NCBI GenBank assembly: GCA_030446015.1
Contig: JASUSO010000002.1
Span: 1,925 to 65,924, forward strand
Reading direction: 5' to 3'
From: Methanobacteriota archaeon
GTDB taxonomy: Archaea > Halobacteriota > Methanomicrobia > Methanomicrobiales > Methanoculleaceae
DNA length: 64,000 nucleotides
Below are positions 2,379-12,337 of the stretch, one piece after another; the first letter of the stretch is position 1, and each line of letters opens with the position of its first letter. The position numbers were made by a program, and so were the translations under genes. The notes below the pieces were generated by a model. That model was not told the DNA's origin. It ran no database searches and was given only the letters and a program-made list of their open reading frames with translations.

Positions 2379-3293
2379 TCACTCCCCCTGTTTTCCGTTC
2401 GAGAGCGGGAAATACTGCTGATAGACGCGTTTACGCTCGTCGATGTCGGTGTGCAGGTAGATCTCGGTCGTCTTGATGGAGGAGTGCCCCAGGTTCTCCT
2501 GCACGACACGGAGGTTCTTTGACCGGCGATAGAGCTCGCTCGCATAGGAATGGCGGATTTTATGCGGCGTAATCCCGGGAGGAGCGTATTGCTTGAAGAG
2601 ATGCTGGACGGTCCGCGGGGAGATGTGGTTGCCCTGTTGACCCACAAAGAGCGGCCCCTCGATCTTGTTGCCGATGAACTGGCTTATCTCGTCGAGCGTC
2701 TCTTCGTCGATGAAAACAGTCCGTATTTTGTCTCCTTTACCCTTTACCCGTATCGTCTGCTCCTCGAAGTCGATATCCTCGATACATATCGCACAGAGTT
2801 CCGAAACACGGACGCCCGTGGCGTAAATGAGGCGGACGATCAGCCGATCGCGCTCGCTCTCGATAGTGTTGAGCAGGCGGATGACCTGGCTGTGTTTGAG
2901 GTATTTCAGTTCCTGATTCTTGATCCGGGGCCGTTCCACCCCAAGCATCGGATCGGCGACAACGGCCCCCTGCACGTAGAGATACTTGTAAAACGAAGAA
3001 AGCGTCGAGATCATCCGGTGGAGAGTCTTGGGCTTGTAATCCTGCTGTTCTGCAAGATAGGAGAAGAAATCGGTGACAAGGGCCGCAGAGACGTTGACGT
3101 TCGCATCCAGCGGAGCGCTCTCGAACATAGCGTCATCGAACGCGACTCCATCCGTATTCTGCCGTAACCAGGCGTATCGGGCGAAGCGCCGGATGGTCTG
3201 CAGGTACTTCTCGATGGTCCGGGGCGAGTAATTCCGCATCCGGAGGTAACTGCTGAAGCGATCCAGCCATTCCGAAAAACAGGCATTTTCCAT
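2379..3293 (-). CDS. xerA: Tyrosine recombinase XerA (XerC/D family)
   Basis: Catalytic set intact: TGVRVSEL (R), VKGKGDK (K), HKIRH (HxxR), LGHSS, TTEIY (Y). The start is taken at MENACF (3293); the longer ORF-track N-terminus is low-complexity. Confidence 0.9.
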   Translation of the reverse strand: MENACFSEWLDRFSSYLRMRNYSPRTIEKYLQTIRRFARYAWLRQNTDGVAFDDAMFESAPLDANVNVSAALVTDFFSYLAEQQDYKPKTLHRMISTLSSFYKYLYVQGAVVADPMLGVERPRIKNQELKYLKHSQVIRLLNTIESERDRLIVRLIYATGVRVSELCAICIEDIDFEEQTIRVKGKGDKIRTVFIDEETLDEISQFIGNKIEGPLFVGQQGNHISPRTVQHLFKQYAPPGITPHKIRHSYASELYRRSKNLRVVQENLGHSSIKTTEIYLHTDIDERKRVYQQYFPLSNGKQGE

Positions 3294-3339
3294 TGTACAA
3301 TACATTAAATAGCGGAGCATATCAAAATTGCGGTAAATG

Positions 3340-4600
3340 CCTATTCCCCGCAATACATTGTACCACCACAGAACCCGGCCACCCACCCAGGAGAGATGGC
3401 CCCCACACACAACCAGGAGAACCGCCACCAGGGAAGTGACACCCAAACCAGGGGTACCCGCCGATCCCCAGATCACACACAGCCAGGCGAATGCCAGGAA
3501 ACAACAGAACCGACCCCATCGGAGACAAGCCAGCCCGGACGGCGACCCGTAGAACACTCCAAAAAACCCGAAACGCCCCCAAACATCGCAGGAACACCAG
3601 ACGCCCCAGGCACCTAAAAAAGTAGGTATCAGGTGATGCAGACTGTGTCGGAGTAGGAGGTATGGTGGGCTGCACCCCAGGTGGGGCGGGGAAGCAAACC
3701 CCACAGAATACGTCCCCGTTCAGGTATATGAACCCCTTACCGCGCGGGGAGAAAGTGAACGGCCCGGAGACAGAAGAGGCGCCACGCGACCCCCACCCCC
3801 CACCCACATATAAATGACCCCCACAGAAGAGCATAAACGCCAGATCACACCCCACGGTAACCACAACTATGGATACAAGCACGATCGAGGCCCAAAAACG
3901 CGATATGAGGCCGGCGGATCTCAATGGCCACCCACAGAACGTCAGGCCACCGTGATCCCGGAAAGAGAGGTTGAATAACCATCAGAACGCAAGGGAGCAG
4001 CGTTTGGCACGGACCAGACCTCGAGTAAACGCCAGATTGCCCCGATCCCCGCTGAAGAGATGTTGCCCCACCCACCAAACTGCACTTCGTCGTAATCGGC
4101 GCAATGTGCCCTTCGCACGGCTTTCGCCACCCACTTCAATCAAACCCACACCAAGTACGGGCCGCGACGCTCCGCAGAAGTGGAATCTGGACCTTGTTGA
4201 GCGCAAATCGCGAAGAACACGATCACTCATTCCTCCACCTTAGAGCAAGACGTTGAACACACAGATGCGAACGCCAAGACCGGGAAGACCGAAAATCTTC
4301 GATGGGAGCGCAATTTCCCGGAGCAACGCCCGGCCCACCGCAATCAAAACACCCCCAAAGCCCGGCCACAGCCCAGACATCAACCATCACCGACCCCCGG
4401 AGCCATTATTGTGCCCCAAATAGGACTACATCGCGCCCTGAGGCCCCGATCACCGCCTCGCACCCCGATCCAGAGAGGCAAGTATAAACCATATGATGCT
4501 ATATGATAATCGAGGCAATCGTGACGCCGGCAGCACCCGCACAGCCACCCAATCCCGGCGACGCATCCGGCCTCTTTTGAACCGCCGCCGCATAACCAGC
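3340..4600. other. Long non-coding, C/A-rich, T-depleted intergenic region
   Basis: No credible protein ORF. Only 12 T in 260 nt at 3361-3620. CCACAGAA recurs at 3366, 3701, 3821 and 3932. Confidence 0.6.
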
Positions 4601-4637
4601 CTTATTGAAATAGCAACACCAACAAGAGGTAGGTAAA

Positions 4638-5207
4638 ATGGAAGAACCTGACAGCATCAAAGACCCAAACAAGTATCAGAAATTCAAGAAGGTAGACGGC
4701 GCCACCTACCAGCGGGTCAACCAGTTCCTGCGCAAACACACCCACATCACCGCCCGCGAGTGGGCCATAGCGCGCCTCTGCGCTGACTTCAAGACCACCA
4801 GCGGCTCGGAGATGACGTTCATCGGTGAGAACCTCCCCGAGCTCTGCCCGTTCATGGTCGACACCTACTCCCCGCAGGCGGTCAACCAGGCCAGGAGTTC
4901 GTTCAAGAAGAAGGTGAAGAAAGCCGGGGCCACATTCTTTTACGGGGCGATGTGCGGTTTTTTCACCGCGGAGGAACTCGACGAGATCCTCTTTGAGGCA
5001 AGCGAGGTCGCCCGGTTCCTGCTGGAGGTGGAAGGGACGAGCCTGAACCTCGACGACGAGATAGACGTCGAGGACCGGATCACCGAGGTGATGCGGGGCG
5101 TGGCCGAGGCGGCTTCGGTCATCCTGAAGGCCCGGCCCGGCCAGGAAGGCGAGACCCAGGAAACAGAGGAGCCAGAAGTACAGAACCAAGGAGAGGAAGA
5201 AGAATGA
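4638..5207 (+). CDS. Conserved archaeal hypothetical protein (DUF5806-like) with an acidic tail
   Basis: HITAREWAIARLCADF and ELDEILFEASEVARFLLEVEG motifs recalled from this family. SD-like GAGGTAGG upstream. Confidence 0.7.
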   Translation: MEEPDSIKDPNKYQKFKKVDGATYQRVNQFLRKHTHITAREWAIARLCADFKTTSGSEMTFIGENLPELCPFMVDTYSPQAVNQARSSFKKKVKKAGATFFYGAMCGFFTAEELDEILFEASEVARFLLEVEGTSLNLDDEIDVEDRITEVMRGVAEAASVILKARPGQEGETQETEEPEVQNQGEEEE

Positions 5208-5959
5208 AGATCATACAGATCGTCGGCCGCTCGAACGCCGGAAAGACAACGTTCATAAGGAACCTGATCAGTGCGCTTTCCGCGCACGGAGCCGTCGGAG
5301 CGATCAAACACCTCGGACACCACGGCTTTTCGCTCGAGCCCGGAAAGGACACCACCTTGTATTATGAATCGCATGCTGCTATATCCGGCGGTGTCGACGA
5401 GGAGAAGTCAGTCATCACCAGGCGCGAGAACGATCTCAACACCACTCTGGATATCCTCTGTAACGCCGGGGTCGAGTACGCCATACTCGAGGGATTCAAG
5501 TCCAGACCATTCCCGAGGGTCGTGATCGGCGACCTCGAGAGCGAGAACGTCGTGCTCCGCAACCCTTCGGTCGAAGAGGTGATCGCCGCACTCGACCGGT
5601 TCGAGGACTACTACACCGTCGAGGGGCTGGTCAGGGAACTGAAACGCGAGTACGGCGTCTCTCACGCCGGAGCGATCCTCACGTTCAACGGGATCGTCAG
5701 GGAATGGTCGGGAGACGACCGGACTGAATACATGGACTTTGACGAGACCGTCGACGCCGTGGCGGAGAGCATCCAGAAAGAGATGGAAGCCGTCCCGGGG
5801 ATCATCGGCGCACGGTTCTACCACCGCAAAGGGCGACTCTATGCCGGAGAAGATATAACATATCTTGCAATACTTGCAGAACACCGACAGGAGGCGTTCG
5901 CCGCCGCTGCAAACGCCATCGACAGACTGAAGCGGGAATTACACAACGTGGAGAAGTGA
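5204..5959 (+). CDS. mobB: MobB-MoaE fusion (molybdopterin-guanine dinucleotide biosynthesis B plus molybdopterin synthase large subunit)
   Basis: N-terminal P-loop GRSNAGKTT with IKH; C-terminal GAILTFNGIVRE...HRKG...IDRLK MoaE motif. Confidence 0.85.
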   Translation: MKIIQIVGRSNAGKTTFIRNLISALSAHGAVGAIKHLGHHGFSLEPGKDTTLYYESHAAISGGVDEEKSVITRRENDLNTTLDILCNAGVEYAILEGFKSRPFPRVVIGDLESENVVLRNPSVEEVIAALDRFEDYYTVEGLVRELKREYGVSHAGAILTFNGIVREWSGDDRTEYMDFDETVDAVAESIQKEMEAVPGIIGARFYHRKGRLYAGEDITYLAILAEHRQEAFAAAANAIDRLKRELHNVEK

Positions 5960-7319: not shown

Positions 7320-7569
7320 AGCCGGGAGCGACCCCGGGCACCCACATCCATCGGCGGGGGACAGACCCCCACCCCTCCACCCGCGGGATCACCCCCCCGC
7401 CACAGTCCCGTACCCGGTGCACGGGATGACTGCTATCATCCACCGTCTCCCTGTAATTTTAGGGGAACTCTCCAAATTCATTGAAAAGCATTCTTGTGGG
7501 AGGGGGGCAATCTATATATCCGATAATGGACATGCATGATGCAGAACCCACGGGAGAGCGCTGATCAAA

Positions 7570-10500
7570 ATGGATGGAAAGGTACAGATAAAACAGAAGA
7601 TCAACTCCGCTATCTCTTCTGGCGATCTGCGTGAGCTTGAAAAGGTGGTTTCGGACATATCAGAGACCCAGACGAGGAAGGAGAAGCGATCGCTCTACGA
7701 GCAGATGAACGCCGCCCTGGTCGAAGCGGCGTTCAGCGAAGGCCAGCCTGAACTCTTGAGCCAGCTCGTTGAACCGACCAGAGAAGAGATATTCGAACTC
7801 GCAAAACGTGCCGCCGCCATCTATAGCGAGAAGAAGGACGAAGCGTGGTTTGCGGCGATATTCACCCTGGTCGACAAACTCGACCGCAAGAGCCATCAAT
7901 CAGATATCCTCGCCCGGATCTCCCGTGATCTCGTCGAGGCCGGGGTTGAATCCGGCGACATCCACTATATCGAAAAAGCTGGAGAGGCATTCAATAAGAT
8001 CAGCATCCGCAAATACCGTTCGGCCATCCTCTCCGAGATCATCCCGCTTTTCATCCGGTTCGGGCAGAAGCATCAGAACGTCGAGATCATGCAGCAAGCC
8101 CTCCAGATGCTCCCCGAGATCGGCGACATATCGCGGCAGTCGCAACTCCACGCCGACGTGGCCCGTGCGATTGCCGGCTCCGGCATTGAGGCCGGGGATA
8201 TCGACCTTGTGATCCGGGGGCTCAGAAGTGCCACCGAGATCAACCAGAAGATCCGGCGCACCAACTCGATCGCCGACATCGTGGACGCCACCTGGAAATC
8301 CTCGCTGAAGAAAGAGATCTCCGACATCGAACAGATCCTCGACGCTCTCCCGGATCTCCCCGAAGAGCGGCGCACGGAAGTCCTCGCGATCCTGACCGAG
8401 CAGCTCCTTGACCGCCAGCGGGACAGGAAGCAGGTATACACCAGACTGCTCAGGATCGACGACGAAAAACCGTGGGCCGGCCAGACCCTCGTCCTCGAAC
8501 TCTTAAAGAAGGCCGAGCGGAGCGGGGAGCGCTGGTACCTTGAGAAGGCTTTCGAGTTCAACGCCCGGGGCGCGGGAGAAGGTCAGCTTCCCATCGAGGA
8601 GATCGTCCTCTCCGGGATCGCTGTCGTCGAGAAGAGCGGCAACCCGACCGTCCTCCTCGACATCACGCCGCTGATCGACGAGACCTGCGACGCCGCGAAA
8701 GCGGCCCAGCTCTACCGGCAGATCACCGACGCGCTCTCCCGCATGGGCGACTTCTATTACGCAATCGAGGTCATGAAGAAGGCCAGCAGCAGTGCACAGA
8801 GGATCAACGCCCAGTTTTTCGACACCAGTGTCCGCCTGATCAAGGAGGGTGTCCGGCGCGACGAGATCGGGCTCGTCCGTGAGAACATCCTCGCCACACT
8901 GGATATCGAGATCGCCGATTCGCTGGTTCACCAGGCGGTGACCGACTTCTGCAAGGAGTACGACTTCGATGAGGTCGTCAGGCACGTACCGGCCATCAAG
9001 GAACTCGCGGGCTCGCACCGCGCACAGGACACCCTGCTTCTCGAGTGCAACAGCATCCTGATCGAGCGGGGATTCGTCCGCCAGAAAGAGCCGTCGGCTC
9101 TCGTAGATCTCGTGAGCCAGATCGGGGAACAGGGTCTCCGCGAACAGGCCATCTCGACCATCGCCGTCGAGATGGCGCGGGTCGGCGTCGCCCGGAAAGA
9201 CCGGGACCTCCTCCGGCACGCGACCGGACTCACCTGTGAGATCGTGGATCAGCGGGCCCGGGCAGAGGCGATGGGGGGTATCGTCGACCAGGCTGCCGTG
9301 CTCGCCGTTGAGGACGGCGACCTCGACCTGCTCCACGGGATGCGGGTCCTCTCCACGTCTCTCCTGGAGCGGGACTACTGCCTCTTTGCGATGGGCAAGG
9401 TCGTCCACGGCCTGATCATGTACGGGATCGAACAGCTCTCGCTCCAGGCGCTGGACGAGGCGGGCCAGATCCTCTCCCAGATCGCCGACCCGGCCCTGCA
9501 ACGGCAGCTGGCCGATCCCCTCATCGAGGGCTACGTCCGGGTCGGGAGCCTGCAGGTGGCGGACCAGCTCTCCCGGGGGAAGGCGCAGGTCTTCGACGGC
9601 ATGATGGAACCGTTCGAGATCGCGCTCGACCTCCTCAAGGCCAGCACCCCAAACGAGGAGATATCGATCAAGATAGCAAGTTACGTCGATATCATGCTCG
9701 AGTACACGCAGGCTTACGCGAGCCCGATCTTTGCTGCGCCCATGTCGCTCTTCTCCCTGGAGATCAGCGGCGAATACGAGCGGACCGCCATGATCCAGCG
9801 GGTCCTCACGTTCTTCACCGATTACACGAAGGAGTTCGACTCGGCCGACCCCTATGAGGTGACGGCGTACCTGCTCGAAGGGATCGAAGGAGGGGCAGCG
9901 GCGCGGCCGGTGCTCGAACTGATGTATCGGCTCTTCGAGCACACCAGCGACACCTATGCACGCTACACCGGGATGTACCGGATCGTGAGCGCCTACTCGG
10001 CCCTCGAAGATGTTGAGCGGGCCGAGGCGATCATCCGGAGGCTCCACGAGACCATCGGCGACCTCTCCGATCCGGCCGTCCGCGCCATCATGCTCTCCGA
10101 CCTTGCCGGACTCATGGCCGGGATCGATCACGATGCGGCCAGGGAGTACCTCGCCGAGGCGCAGAAGACACTTGATGCCATACGGAGCGAGCGGGAGGCA
10201 TTCATCAGGAAGAACCTGATCTACGCCGCGCGAAGTCTCTGCGCCGTAAACCGGCAGGAGAAGGACGTCGAGTGGGCGATGGAGCAGGTCGGCAAGATCG
10301 ATGACCCGGTCGAGTACGTGGACGCTCTGGCGGCGGTCTTCGATATGGTCAGCGAACCCGCACAGAGGAAAGATATCCTCTCGTCGATGTGCCATACCGT
10401 CGTGAACATCCCCTTCCCCTACGTCCGGCTCTCGATGCTCTTTGACGTAGCACAGTTCGCCGAGACATACGGCGACGAAGAGGAGATCGAGGAACTGTTA

Positions 10501-11136
10501 AACGGCATGGAGCAGACCGCCGGCTACGTCCAGATCCCGTTCATCACCGCCATGACGCAGCAGCGGATGGCCCAGATGCTCTTCTCGTTCTACCGGGCAA
10601 GCGGGAAGCCCGCCGCCCGGGAGCGTGCGACCGATATCGTCTCCGCCATCGAGGACGACAGGATCCGGTATAACCTGACGGTCCAGCTCGAGCAGACCAT
10701 GCCCCCGTCCTGGAAGAACACAGTCTACGCCAAGATCCTCAACTGCCGGGACAAGATCCGGAACGGCGAGTACACCACCAAAGACATGGTCGCGCTCGAT
10801 AGAGCGATCCGTGCGGCACCCGACAGGGCGAAGCGGGCGGCCTACTACACGGAGCTCTACCTCATCGCCCGGGGCGCAGGACAGCAGGAGGTTGCGGACA
10901 GGATGCTGCTCTGCGCGCTCGAAGAGGCCCGGATCATCAGGCCGCTCTCGCGGCGGGCGTTCGTGCTCGGCGATATGGCGTGCCGTATCTACGCGGAGCG
11001 GTACGAAGACCGTTCAAGGGAGATCCTCGATCTGGCGGTGAGCGAGGCGCTCAACATCCGCGACTCGACGATCCGGGACGAGGTCTACGACGAACTGGAT
11101 ATGTCCATACGAATCATTCAGGAGCACTGGCTGTGA
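7570..11136 (+). CDS. Large (1188 aa) alpha-helical repeat protein of unknown function
   Basis: Long ORF with core codon style and a recurring I-x-D/x-x-x-x-R-x-x-x-L-x-x-I/L-A unit. No TM segment or catalytic motif seen. Confidence 0.8.
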   Translation: MDGKVQIKQKINSAISSGDLRELEKVVSDISETQTRKEKRSLYEQMNAALVEAAFSEGQPELLSQLVEPTREEIFELAKRAAAIYSEKKDEAWFAAIFTLVDKLDRKSHQSDILARISRDLVEAGVESGDIHYIEKAGEAFNKISIRKYRSAILSEIIPLFIRFGQKHQNVEIMQQALQMLPEIGDISRQSQLHADVARAIAGSGIEAGDIDLVIRGLRSATEINQKIRRTNSIADIVDATWKSSLKKEISDIEQILDALPDLPEERRTEVLAILTEQLLDRQRDRKQVYTRLLRIDDEKPWAGQTLVLELLKKAERSGERWYLEKAFEFNARGAGEGQLPIEEIVLSGIAVVEKSGNPTVLLDITPLIDETCDAAKAAQLYRQITDALSRMGDFYYAIEVMKKASSSAQRINAQFFDTSVRLIKEGVRRDEIGLVRENILATLDIEIADSLVHQAVTDFCKEYDFDEVVRHVPAIKELAGSHRAQDTLLLECNSILIERGFVRQKEPSALVDLVSQIGEQGLREQAISTIAVEMARVGVARKDRDLLRHATGLTCEIVDQRARAEAMGGIVDQAAVLAVEDGDLDLLHGMRVLSTSLLERDYCLFAMGKVVHGLIMYGIEQLSLQALDEAGQILSQIADPALQRQLADPLIEGYVRVGSLQVADQLSRGKAQVFDGMMEPFEIALDLLKASTPNEEISIKIASYVDIMLEYTQAYASPIFAAPMSLFSLEISGEYERTAMIQRVLTFFTDYTKEFDSADPYEVTAYLLEGIEGGAAARPVLELMYRLFEHTSDTYARYTGMYRIVSAYSALEDVERAEAIIRRLHETIGDLSDPAVRAIMLSDLAGLMAGIDHDAAREYLAEAQKTLDAIRSEREAFIRKNLIYAARSLCAVNRQEKDVEWAMEQVGKIDDPVEYVDALAAVFDMVSEPAQRKDILSSMCHTVVNIPFPYVRLSMLFDVAQFAETYGDEEEIEELLNGMEQTAGYVQIPFITAMTQQRMAQMLFSFYRASGKPAARERATDIVSAIEDDRIRYNLTVQLEQTMPPSWKNTVYAKILNCRDKIRNGEYTTKDMVALDRAIRAAPDRAKRAAYYTELYLIARGAGQQEVADRMLLCALEEARIIRPLSRRAFVLGDMACRIYAERYEDRSREILDLAVSEALNIRDSTIRDEVYDELDMSIRIIQEHWL

Positions 11137-11420
11137 AAACGATCGAGATCCGGGTCTCGGGCAGGGTGCAGGGCGTCGGGTTCCGCGCATGTATCAAGAG
11201 GATCGCCACCAACCTCGGCGTCGGCGGCGAGGCGATGAATCTTCCCGACGGGAGGGTGCTGATCACCGCAACCGCCGACCCGGTCATCCTCGATAAGTTC
11301 GTCTCCATGCTGTACGGGTGTCCCCGGGTCGTCATCAGGGATCTCGTCCAGCAGGAGATCCCTCTTGCCGCCTATCCCGAGTTCACCATCCAGCGGGGCA
11401 ACTACCAGTACAGCACATGA
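11133..11420 (+). CDS. acyP: Acylphosphatase
   Basis: GTG start overlaps the upstream stop (GTGA). Signatures SGRVQGVGFR and MNLPDGRV. Confidence 0.85.
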   Translation: MKTIEIRVSGRVQGVGFRACIKRIATNLGVGGEAMNLPDGRVLITATADPVILDKFVSMLYGCPRVVIRDLVQQEIPLAAYPEFTIQRGNYQYST

Positions 11421-12337
11421 AACTCGGCGTTTGAAAGGAGCGCATCCAGCACGATGCGCACCTGCGCGTCGATACGGTTCTGGTCGATGGAGTCGCGGAG
11501 TGCCGCACTCAACCGGGCGGAGAGATCGCTGCCCAGATAACACCGCTTTTCACCGCATTCGTAATCCGCGCTTGTGATCTCTTCACGGGCAAACCGGATG
11601 ACGACGCGATCCACCATCGAGGCTTTCTGCGGTTCGATGAGGTCGTGGATGAAACTCCCCGCCCCTTCATGAAGCATGCCGAGGTCGGGATTGAGGTCCG
11701 CCCCGATCACCGAGACGCAGCAGTTGCCATACAGCATCGCGTACCCGAACGAAAACATCGCGTTGACCGGGTCGAGGTATGGGCGGCTTGTCCTGCGGCG
11801 GAACCCAAGTTCCGGCGGGAGGGTGCGGGAGAGGATCTCGTAGTACATATCAGCGGTCAGGCGGGAGAGACGGCGCAGGTTCTCCATCGTGACCGAGACC
11901 GAGAGTTCTTCCCGGGCCTGGTGGAGGAAGTCGAGTTCTCCGGCGTAGAAGATGTCGTGCCCGGTGTGGTCGTAGAGTTCCTCGAGGAGGAGGAGCCTCG
12001 ACTGGAGGGCGGCCCGCGCGAGCGGCTGAGCGAACCGGTGGGGGCCGGCACGCTCCTGGGCGAGGCGCACCGACCCGTCCGGCCGGTAGCCATAAGGATA
12101 GAGGTGGCCGACGGGCGTGCCGTCGATATCGAAGATAGTGATGGCAGCGCCGGCTTTGAGGAGGTTCGTCACCGCCGAGGTGTGCAGGGTATGCCCGCCG
12201 ACGACCAGGAGGTGCTTCACCGACTGTATGGGATAGCGCTGGATATCGCTCCCGCGCGCGATGATGAGCTCATGGGTCGTCGCCTTGATGTGTCCCCCGT
12301 AGCCGAAGACGGGGAGCCAGGGTTCCGTCGCTGCCAT
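11402..12337 (-). CDS. cas1: Stand-alone Cas1-family protein (Cas1-solo), probably catalytically impaired
   Basis: Cas1 N-terminal beta domain (LLVVGGHTLHTSAVTNLLKAG...DGTPVG), DPVNAMFSFGYAML, LGMLH and HDLIEP motifs. No cas2 or array nearby. Confidence 0.85.
   Translation of the reverse strand: MAATEPWLPVFGYGGHIKATTHELIIARGSDIQRYPIQSVKHLLVVGGHTLHTSAVTNLLKAGAAITIFDIDGTPVGHLYPYGYRPDGSVRLAQERAGPHRFAQPLARAALQSRLLLLEELYDHTGHDIFYAGELDFLHQAREELSVSVTMENLRRLSRLTADMYYEILSRTLPPELGFRRRTSRPYLDPVNAMFSFGYAMLYGNCCVSVIGADLNPDLGMLHEGAGSFIHDLIEPQKASMVDRVVIRFAREEITSADYECGEKRCYLGSDLSARLSAALRDSIDQNRIDAQVRIVLDALLSNAEFHVLYW

Follow-up and report, generated by a model that had tools for sequence, protein, structure and literature searches.

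A 64,000-nucleotide stretch of archaeal DNA from the order Methanomicrobiales (assembly GCA_030446015.1, contig JASUSO010000002.1; the window in what follows) contains a gene for a very large protein made of helical repeats, which lies directly upstream of a gene for an acylphosphatase (AcyP). We hold, with moderate confidence, that this protein is a cytoplasmic, non-enzymatic alpha-solenoid, most likely a protein-binding scaffold, that is accessory and co-expressed with AcyP. A TPR-like alpha-solenoid fold without a catalytic domain is well supported by a structural model. The coordinates of the gene, its repeat blocks and its neighbors are collected in Table 1.

The initial annotation of this DNA had described the gene as an open reading frame for a giant protein of 1188 residues that has no recognisable catalytic domain, signal peptide or transmembrane segment and is probably cytoplasmic, and all of this has held. 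The frame is uninterrupted, and its product of 134 kDa is acidic (pI 4.9), with a net charge that never exceeds +3 over any 40 residues, a polar N-terminus, and a hydropathy peak of only 1.23 (Kyte-Doolittle mean over 19 residues). Searches of Pfam and NCBIfam gave no significant match, and no known catalytic family was found in Pfam, NCBIfam or PDB sequence searches. Neither the solenoid protein nor AcyP matched a family of the PADLOC defence profiles at E <= 0.01. The nearest named relatives of the solenoid protein, with 93% identity, are proteins of Methanoculleus sp. MH98A and FWC-SCC3, which assigns the window to a Methanoculleus genome.

The AlphaFold2 model, which was built from a 21-sequence alignment, is composed throughout of helical hairpins (66 helices, 81% helical; mean predicted local distance difference test score, pLDDT, 89.1). 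The predicted template modelling score (pTM) is low at 0.49, as expected for an elongated solenoid. In the regular blocks of the model, helices of ~22 and 12-13 residues alternate every 40 residues. Three structure searches were made, namely one with Foldseek, a second look with VIA-align, and a VIA-align comparison with 48,161 chains that was independent of Foldseek. The matches listed in these searches are alpha-solenoids only, and include TTC21B/IFT139, Ski3, Ctr9, mTOR, CAND1, VPS35, the TPR domain of OGT, LGN, Ton1535 (3zpj), PPR proteins and designed repeats. When clusters of the family itself are set aside, the nearest clusters by ESM features carry TPR_12. The predicted structure thus agrees with the TPR/HEAT-like alpha-solenoid that had been proposed from the sequence; its assignment to any curated repeat family is unsupported.

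A recurring unit of about 40 residues had likewise been proposed, on the basis of ten motifs. All ten are present, at residues 144, 184, 224, 518, 558, 638, 832, 947, 1027 and 1163, their spacing inside the blocks corresponds to exact multiples of 40 (40, 40, 40, 80 and 80), and they are the starts of diverged units of ~40 residues. Profile-profile self-comparison of the family alignment, which served as our repeat test, confirmed the repetition with significant matches (E values of 2e-8 to 7e-5): residues 144-223 match residues 601-659 (2e-6), 524-590 (6e-6) and 74-138 (3e-5), residues 832-911 match 947-1028 (2e-8), and residues 1086-1165 match 798-871 (7e-5). The rough consensus of the unit is I-x-D-x-x-x-R-S-x-A-L-x-x-I-I ... 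G-D-x-D-L-L. In the N-terminal block a unit consists of a 22-residue helix, a helix of 12-13 residues and a loop starting with I-x-D/x, and the units begin with the conserved motifs RKYRS, SKRS and QKIRR. Residues 521-600 of the central block are among the best-conserved segments of the family, and the most conserved segment of all, IIRPLSRR...GD (residues 1121-1140), is located in the last block. It should be noted that a hidden Markov model (HMM) of the 40-residue unit, trained on five units, recovered just those five and detected none of the other hairpins, with no domain above 5 bits in 100 shuffled sequences. Because it regains its training units alone, this HMM cannot count repeats, and profile-profile comparison was used instead; the other hairpins that it misses imply that the sequence-level repeat signal resides in four blocks and is uneven over the ~30 hairpins. 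Judged by these comparisons, the repeats reflect real internal homology that is old and diverged.

Homologues were sought with HMMER in all of 1.84 billion representatives, without restriction on length, which returned 91 proteins, comprising ~20 full-length relatives, fragments of the family and four unrelated TPR proteins. No fused or longer form that could serve as a Rosetta-stone clue was present among proteins of 2080-5000 residues. Full-length relatives have 1171-1223 residues (most 1185-1195) at identities down to 23%, and the 21-sequence alignment, whose members are 32-87% identical to the query, needs 1194 columns for 1188 residues. For a repeat protein, it is unusual that the length should vary so little across such deep divergence. 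This constancy, and an alignment that stays almost gap-free even at 23% identity, point to an architecture that is fixed and has binding sites specific to position, in which each repeat would keep its own identity, and not to an expandable array. The gene is single-copy in whole genomes, and its ratio of nonsynonymous to synonymous substitution rates within Methanoculleus (dN/dS = 0.12-0.17) indicates purifying selection. Database labels of the homologues are 'hypothetical' or the generic 'TPR repeat protein', and our literature search found no paper on the family.

Phyletic profiling confined the gene to Methanomicrobiales, with 107 of 201 genomes of the order carrying it and no occurrence among ~334 genomes from other families of the phylum. 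When the order is divided into six families (f1 to f6), the gene occurs in every genome of f1 (32/32), f4 (7/7) and f5 (11/11), in 52 of 105 genomes of f2, in 4 of 24 of f3, and in none of the 21 of f6. Named carriers include Methanoculleus, Methanofollis liminatans (Metli_1477), M. tationis, Methanoregula and metagenome-assembled genomes of Methanoregulaceae, and Methanocalculus chunghsingensis. Absence can be clean, as in five solenoid-negative genomes in which the mutase gene that normally precedes the solenoid gene is followed by 140-390 nt and then by AcyP and Cas1, with no remnant in between. In one genus, the spacer between the mutase and AcyP genes of a solenoid-negative genome (G003) could be compared with the intergenic DNA of a solenoid-positive one (G005), and the two were unalignable at ~73% genic identity. 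In a tree of Cas1 and AcyP, the genomes without the solenoid gene are distributed over at least three separate clades, of which one lies within the genus Methanocalculus, and in a Methanoregula-type genome (G083) all that is left of the gene is its C-terminal third, with a frameshift. The simplest history is that the gene arose once, at or near the base of Methanomicrobiales, and was then lost repeatedly, on at least three occasions, and the protein would accordingly be accessory and dispensable.

Two further observations concern individual loci. In the locus of G083 (L037, G083:C1, ~2745-5193), a ~1.1-kb insertion and changes of frame also interrupt the first of the PaaK-like ligase genes, and the mutase block that would lie upstream is absent. 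This locus of a small genome (1.9 Mb) seems to be undergoing decay or to have been rearranged. In the solenoid-negative family f6, an open reading frame of ~1290 codons near AcyP was considered as a divergent homologue and rejected, since it encodes the large subunit of DNA polymerase D, DP2, with an intein (Pfam E value of 1e-153; hhalign probability of 0.1%). The DP2 gene near the AcyP-Cas1 pair in these loci (L024-L026) carries an intein-like insertion (Intein_splicing/Hint) at about residues 925-1000.

The gene probably has its own control region and overlaps the gene that follows it. The last ~100 nt 5' of its ATG are nearly invariant in eight loci of the Methanoculleus family, one of which encodes a protein of only 74% identity, and across the genomes of this family they are more conserved than the coding sequence. 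A near-invariant region of this size with a TATA-like box and a short palindrome suggests that the solenoid gene has a promoter of its own, and the region may hold a promoter and a binding site for a regulator, or else a structured leader. At its other end, the gene overlaps that of AcyP by 4 nt (GTGA), the GTG start at 11133 preceding the stop codon at 11134-11136 by one nucleotide. Such an overlap between stop and start (RTGA) recurs throughout the order, being present in 9 of 11 diverse lineages from five families; the exceptions are one lineage with a 2-nt gap and the most divergent, Methanocalculus, with a gap of 57 nt. The translational coupling to an acylphosphatase that the initial annotation had put forward is therefore upheld. 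By alignment with its orthologues, AcyP has an intact phosphate loop (GRVQGVGFR) and an intact catalytic-type Asn. It belongs to an ortholog group that is distinct in Methanomicrobiales, with E values of 1e-22 or lower inside the order and of 3e-18 or weaker outside. Genome G000 contains two more genes with an acylphosphatase domain (C100:17372-17608 and C37:14158-14403), one in a 741-residue HypF-like frame and one small and stand-alone, which makes the AcyP next to the solenoid gene a paralogue; its Pfam score is lower than those of the other two.

Taken together, we envisage that ~33 helical hairpins, many of them diverged TPR-like units of 40 residues, would stack into a long superhelix, which most likely acts as a platform for binding proteins. 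The gene would be expressed from its own conserved promoter region and would be co-transcribed and translationally coupled with the Methanomicrobiales-specific AcyP paralogue, so that the two proteins would be made together, and the solenoid may tether or regulate AcyP or act in its pathway. Several points weigh against this scaffold reading. Overlaps between stop and start codons are common in compact archaeal operons regardless of function. With or without a solenoid gene in the genome, AcyP orthologues have a preserved phosphate-binding loop and Asn, and no systematic sequence difference between solenoid-positive and solenoid-negative genomes was visible in the ortholog alignment; this likeness implies that AcyP is not dependent on the solenoid. 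The entire block from DUF5806 through MoaE and PGM to PaaK is syntenic across the order, and for this reason the neighborhood alone is weak evidence. The fold matches have TM-scores of 0.1-0.2 and Z values of at most 12.2, a range that is also reached by unrelated helical repeats, which places all of them within noise. The role as a scaffold and any physical link to AcyP are inferred.

An unlikely alternative is that the protein is a helical repeat of the PPR or PUF kind that binds RNA or another nucleic acid, with the basic helix starts RKYRS, SKRS and QKIRR lining a groove for the polyanion. The N-terminal half (residues 67-465) has its best alignments with PPR proteins of designed and mitoribosomal origin, Rmd9, Aep and THA8 (Z 8.2-12.0), the family profile weakly matches designed PPR sequences (E 3e-4), and the Lys/Arg clusters at the unit starts are conserved. 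However, these Z values are below the level for unrelated helical repeats, the root-mean-square deviation (rmsd) on long alignments amounts to 14-20 A, and the protein as a whole is acidic, as judged by its pI and by the ceiling on its local positive charge. Moreover, the repeat period is 40 residues (22+13 helices) and not the 35 of PPR profiles, and there is no Pfam match to PPR, PUF or any other RNA-binding family.

A second alternative involves the Cas1 gene that converges on AcyP. The Cas1-solo group 1 locus reportedly goes back to work by Makarova et al. in 2013. Cas1-solo is the sole Cas1 of the genome, and its 3' end overlaps that of AcyP by 19 nt (11402-11420). It is present in 196 of 201 Methanomicrobiales genomes, and each of the 20 loci that were examined has it paired with AcyP, also in f6, which has kept the pair in a different upstream context in which no upstream gene is the same. 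Passages of Krupovic et al. 2014 (PMC4046053) and of PMC9939771 describe Cas1-solo group 1 as exclusive to Methanomicrobiales, vertically inherited and without a full active site; in those passages its solenoid and acylphosphatase neighbors are not mentioned. The solenoid family has the same taxonomic restriction, and both appear to be vertically inherited; however, the solenoid gene occurs in only about half of the genomes that bear Cas1-solo. Literature searches on Cas1 with acylphosphatase, on Ton1535, on tetratricopeptide or acylphosphatase proteins of Methanoculleus and on Metli_1477 found nothing relevant. The order of genes around the solenoid, namely DUF5806, MobB/MoaE, a phosphoglucomutase-type mutase, the solenoid, AcyP, the convergent Cas1, two PaaK-like ligases and two further open reading frames, is shared by ten genomes that represent five families.

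The solenoid could be the adaptor subunit of a domesticated module with AcyP and the catalytically impaired Cas1-solo, an explanation that we regard as quite improbable. The three genes are adjacent in all solenoid-positive genomes examined, in five families, the 3' ends of AcyP and Cas1 overlap, and the solenoid and Cas1-solo group 1 are found only in Methanomicrobiales, to which the AcyP paralogue group is also specific (PMC4046053, in part). A broader version, to which we give equally little credence, would be an undescribed order-specific module of solenoid adaptor, Cas1-solo and dedicated AcyP, acting for example in DNA or chromatin transactions under acyl-phosphate or phospho-signalling control, of which solenoid-less lineages would run a reduced form. 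The distribution argues against strict co-occurrence (107 of 201 genomes for the solenoid versus 196 of 201 for Cas1-solo), in loci from which the solenoid gene has been deleted AcyP and Cas1 are still a conserved pair, Cas1 is convergent and hence not co-transcribed with the solenoid gene, and the entire region is a conserved housekeeping synteny block. As AcyP and Cas1-solo are unchanged in the roughly half of Methanomicrobiales without a solenoid gene, the solenoid is not an obligatory partner of either.

A hidden all-alpha enzyme or ligand-binding toroid of the hydrolase, lyase or cyclase type, located in the irregular regions 243-520 or 660-800, is very improbable, since the less regular helix lengths of these regions, their invariant polar residues (H483, D707, E731, R738, R744 and Y762) and a weak match of the C-terminal part to an alpha/alpha toroid (Z 8.2-10.1), which is a designed repeat protein, are set against the lack of any natural enzyme fold among the best 50 matches of each of the three structure searches and of any catalytic family in the sequence searches.

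Two other genes of the window belong to the surroundings of the locus. A 441-residue tyrosine recombinase (XerA-like; 2379-3704, minus strand) forms part of the conserved block of synteny that is shared by several families, and so it is likely to be the Xer recombinase of the chromosome, not the integrase of a mobile element. A MobB-MoaE fusion (molybdenum cofactor genes) is encoded at 5204-5959 on the plus strand; in several genomes of the Methanoregula type, the alignment at this position covers the MobB-like half alone.

Table 1. Features of the solenoid locus, in coordinates of the window
Feature	Coordinates	Strand	Evidence and remarks
Upstream region of the solenoid gene	7470..7569	+	TATA-like CTATATAT at ~7512-7519; 5-bp inverted repeat TGCAT-G-ATGCA; GGGAG, Shine-Dalgarno-like
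Solenoid gene	7570..11136	+	Intact open reading frame, 1188 codons, ATG start, TGA stop
N-terminal repeat block, residues 74-263	7789..8358	+	40-residue units; helix boundaries from the model, internal homology
Central repeat block, residues 518-660	9121..9549	+	Homologous to the N-terminal block
C-terminal repeat block, residues 798-1028	9961..10653	+	Self-comparison; sub-threshold TPR_12/TPR_19/ARM_TT21 matches in some homologues
Last repeat block, residues 1086-1188	10825..11133	+	Self-comparison, family conservation
Acylphosphatase (AcyP), 95 residues	11133..11420	+	Pfam PF00708, E 3.4e-15
Cas1-solo group 1 gene	11402..12337	-	Pfam PF01867, E 1.7e-49; convergent with AcyP

The solenoid is a large, well-conserved and lineage-defining family that has no Pfam or NCBIfam model, and a family definition would improve the annotation of Methanomicrobiales genomes, which are relevant to biogas reactors and wetlands. 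Its near-constant length is suggestive of a rigid scaffold in which specific sites are numerous. Its presence in about half of the order, with a 4/8 polymorphism within Methanocalculus, provides a natural comparison for what the solenoid contributes to the AcyP-Cas1 locus, and the module reading, if true, would give a first functional handle on Cas1-solo group 1. The value of these results is modest, as no mechanism or surprising biology has been demonstrated.

Comparison with known repeat proteins helps to place the family. The best PDB match by sequence profile is the designed protein DHR14 (5h7c/5cwh; E 2e-9, residues 6-214), and the best structural fit is to C6HR1_4r (8gaa; Z 12.2, rmsd 4.2 A over 181 residues). 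As both are artificial, idealised two-helix repeats, the likeness stems from the regularity of the repeats and not from shared ancestry or function. Among natural proteins, the best structural match to the C-terminal third (residues 760-1182) is Ton1535 of Thermococcus onnurineus (3zpj), likewise an archaeal superhelical repeat protein, of 356 residues versus 1188 and with a PDB entry title that names no function; about 300 residues are aligned at 14% identity with an rmsd of 18.6 A and Z values of 11.4 and 10.5 that are within repeat noise, and a profile search of PDB sequences detected no sequence homology between the two. Regarding the HEAT/ARM repeats, there is a sub-threshold match to ARM_ECM29_C (E 0.035), and CAND1, mTOR, importin and PP2A-A are among the generic structural matches (Z <= 9.6). 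The 36-44-residue period of Sel1-like repeats would fit the solenoid; however, no Sel1 match was obtained in Pfam and no entry with this name is among the matches listed in the three structure searches.

The closest resemblance is to the TPR-like solenoids, such as the TPR_12 repeats of ~42 residues in STAND NTPases and kinesin light chain, and the long scaffolds Ski3, Ctr9 and TTC21B/IFT139, which likewise stack helix-turn-helix hairpins into a long superhelix. TPR superhelices are the best Foldseek matches to the model (E values of 1e-8 to 1e-6), and a TIR-STAND-TPR_12 protein aligns to residues 113-224. Unlike members of the TPR clan of Pfam, the query protein has no TPR match even at E <= 1; sub-threshold matches to TPR_12 (PF13424), TPR_19 or ARM_TT21 occur in 6 of the 21 homologues (E <= 0.01) at about residues 800-890, and the best homologue match reaches 28.4 bits against a gathering cut-off of 30.1. 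The canonical TPR unit has 34 residues and equal helices, whereas that of the solenoid has 40 residues and unequal helices (~22 and 12-13). The tandem antiparallel helix pairs in a superhelix that characterize TPR proteins are all the same present in the AlphaFold2 model, and the solenoid family is itself new and has no curated model, while its kind, the TPR-like alpha-solenoid, is well known.

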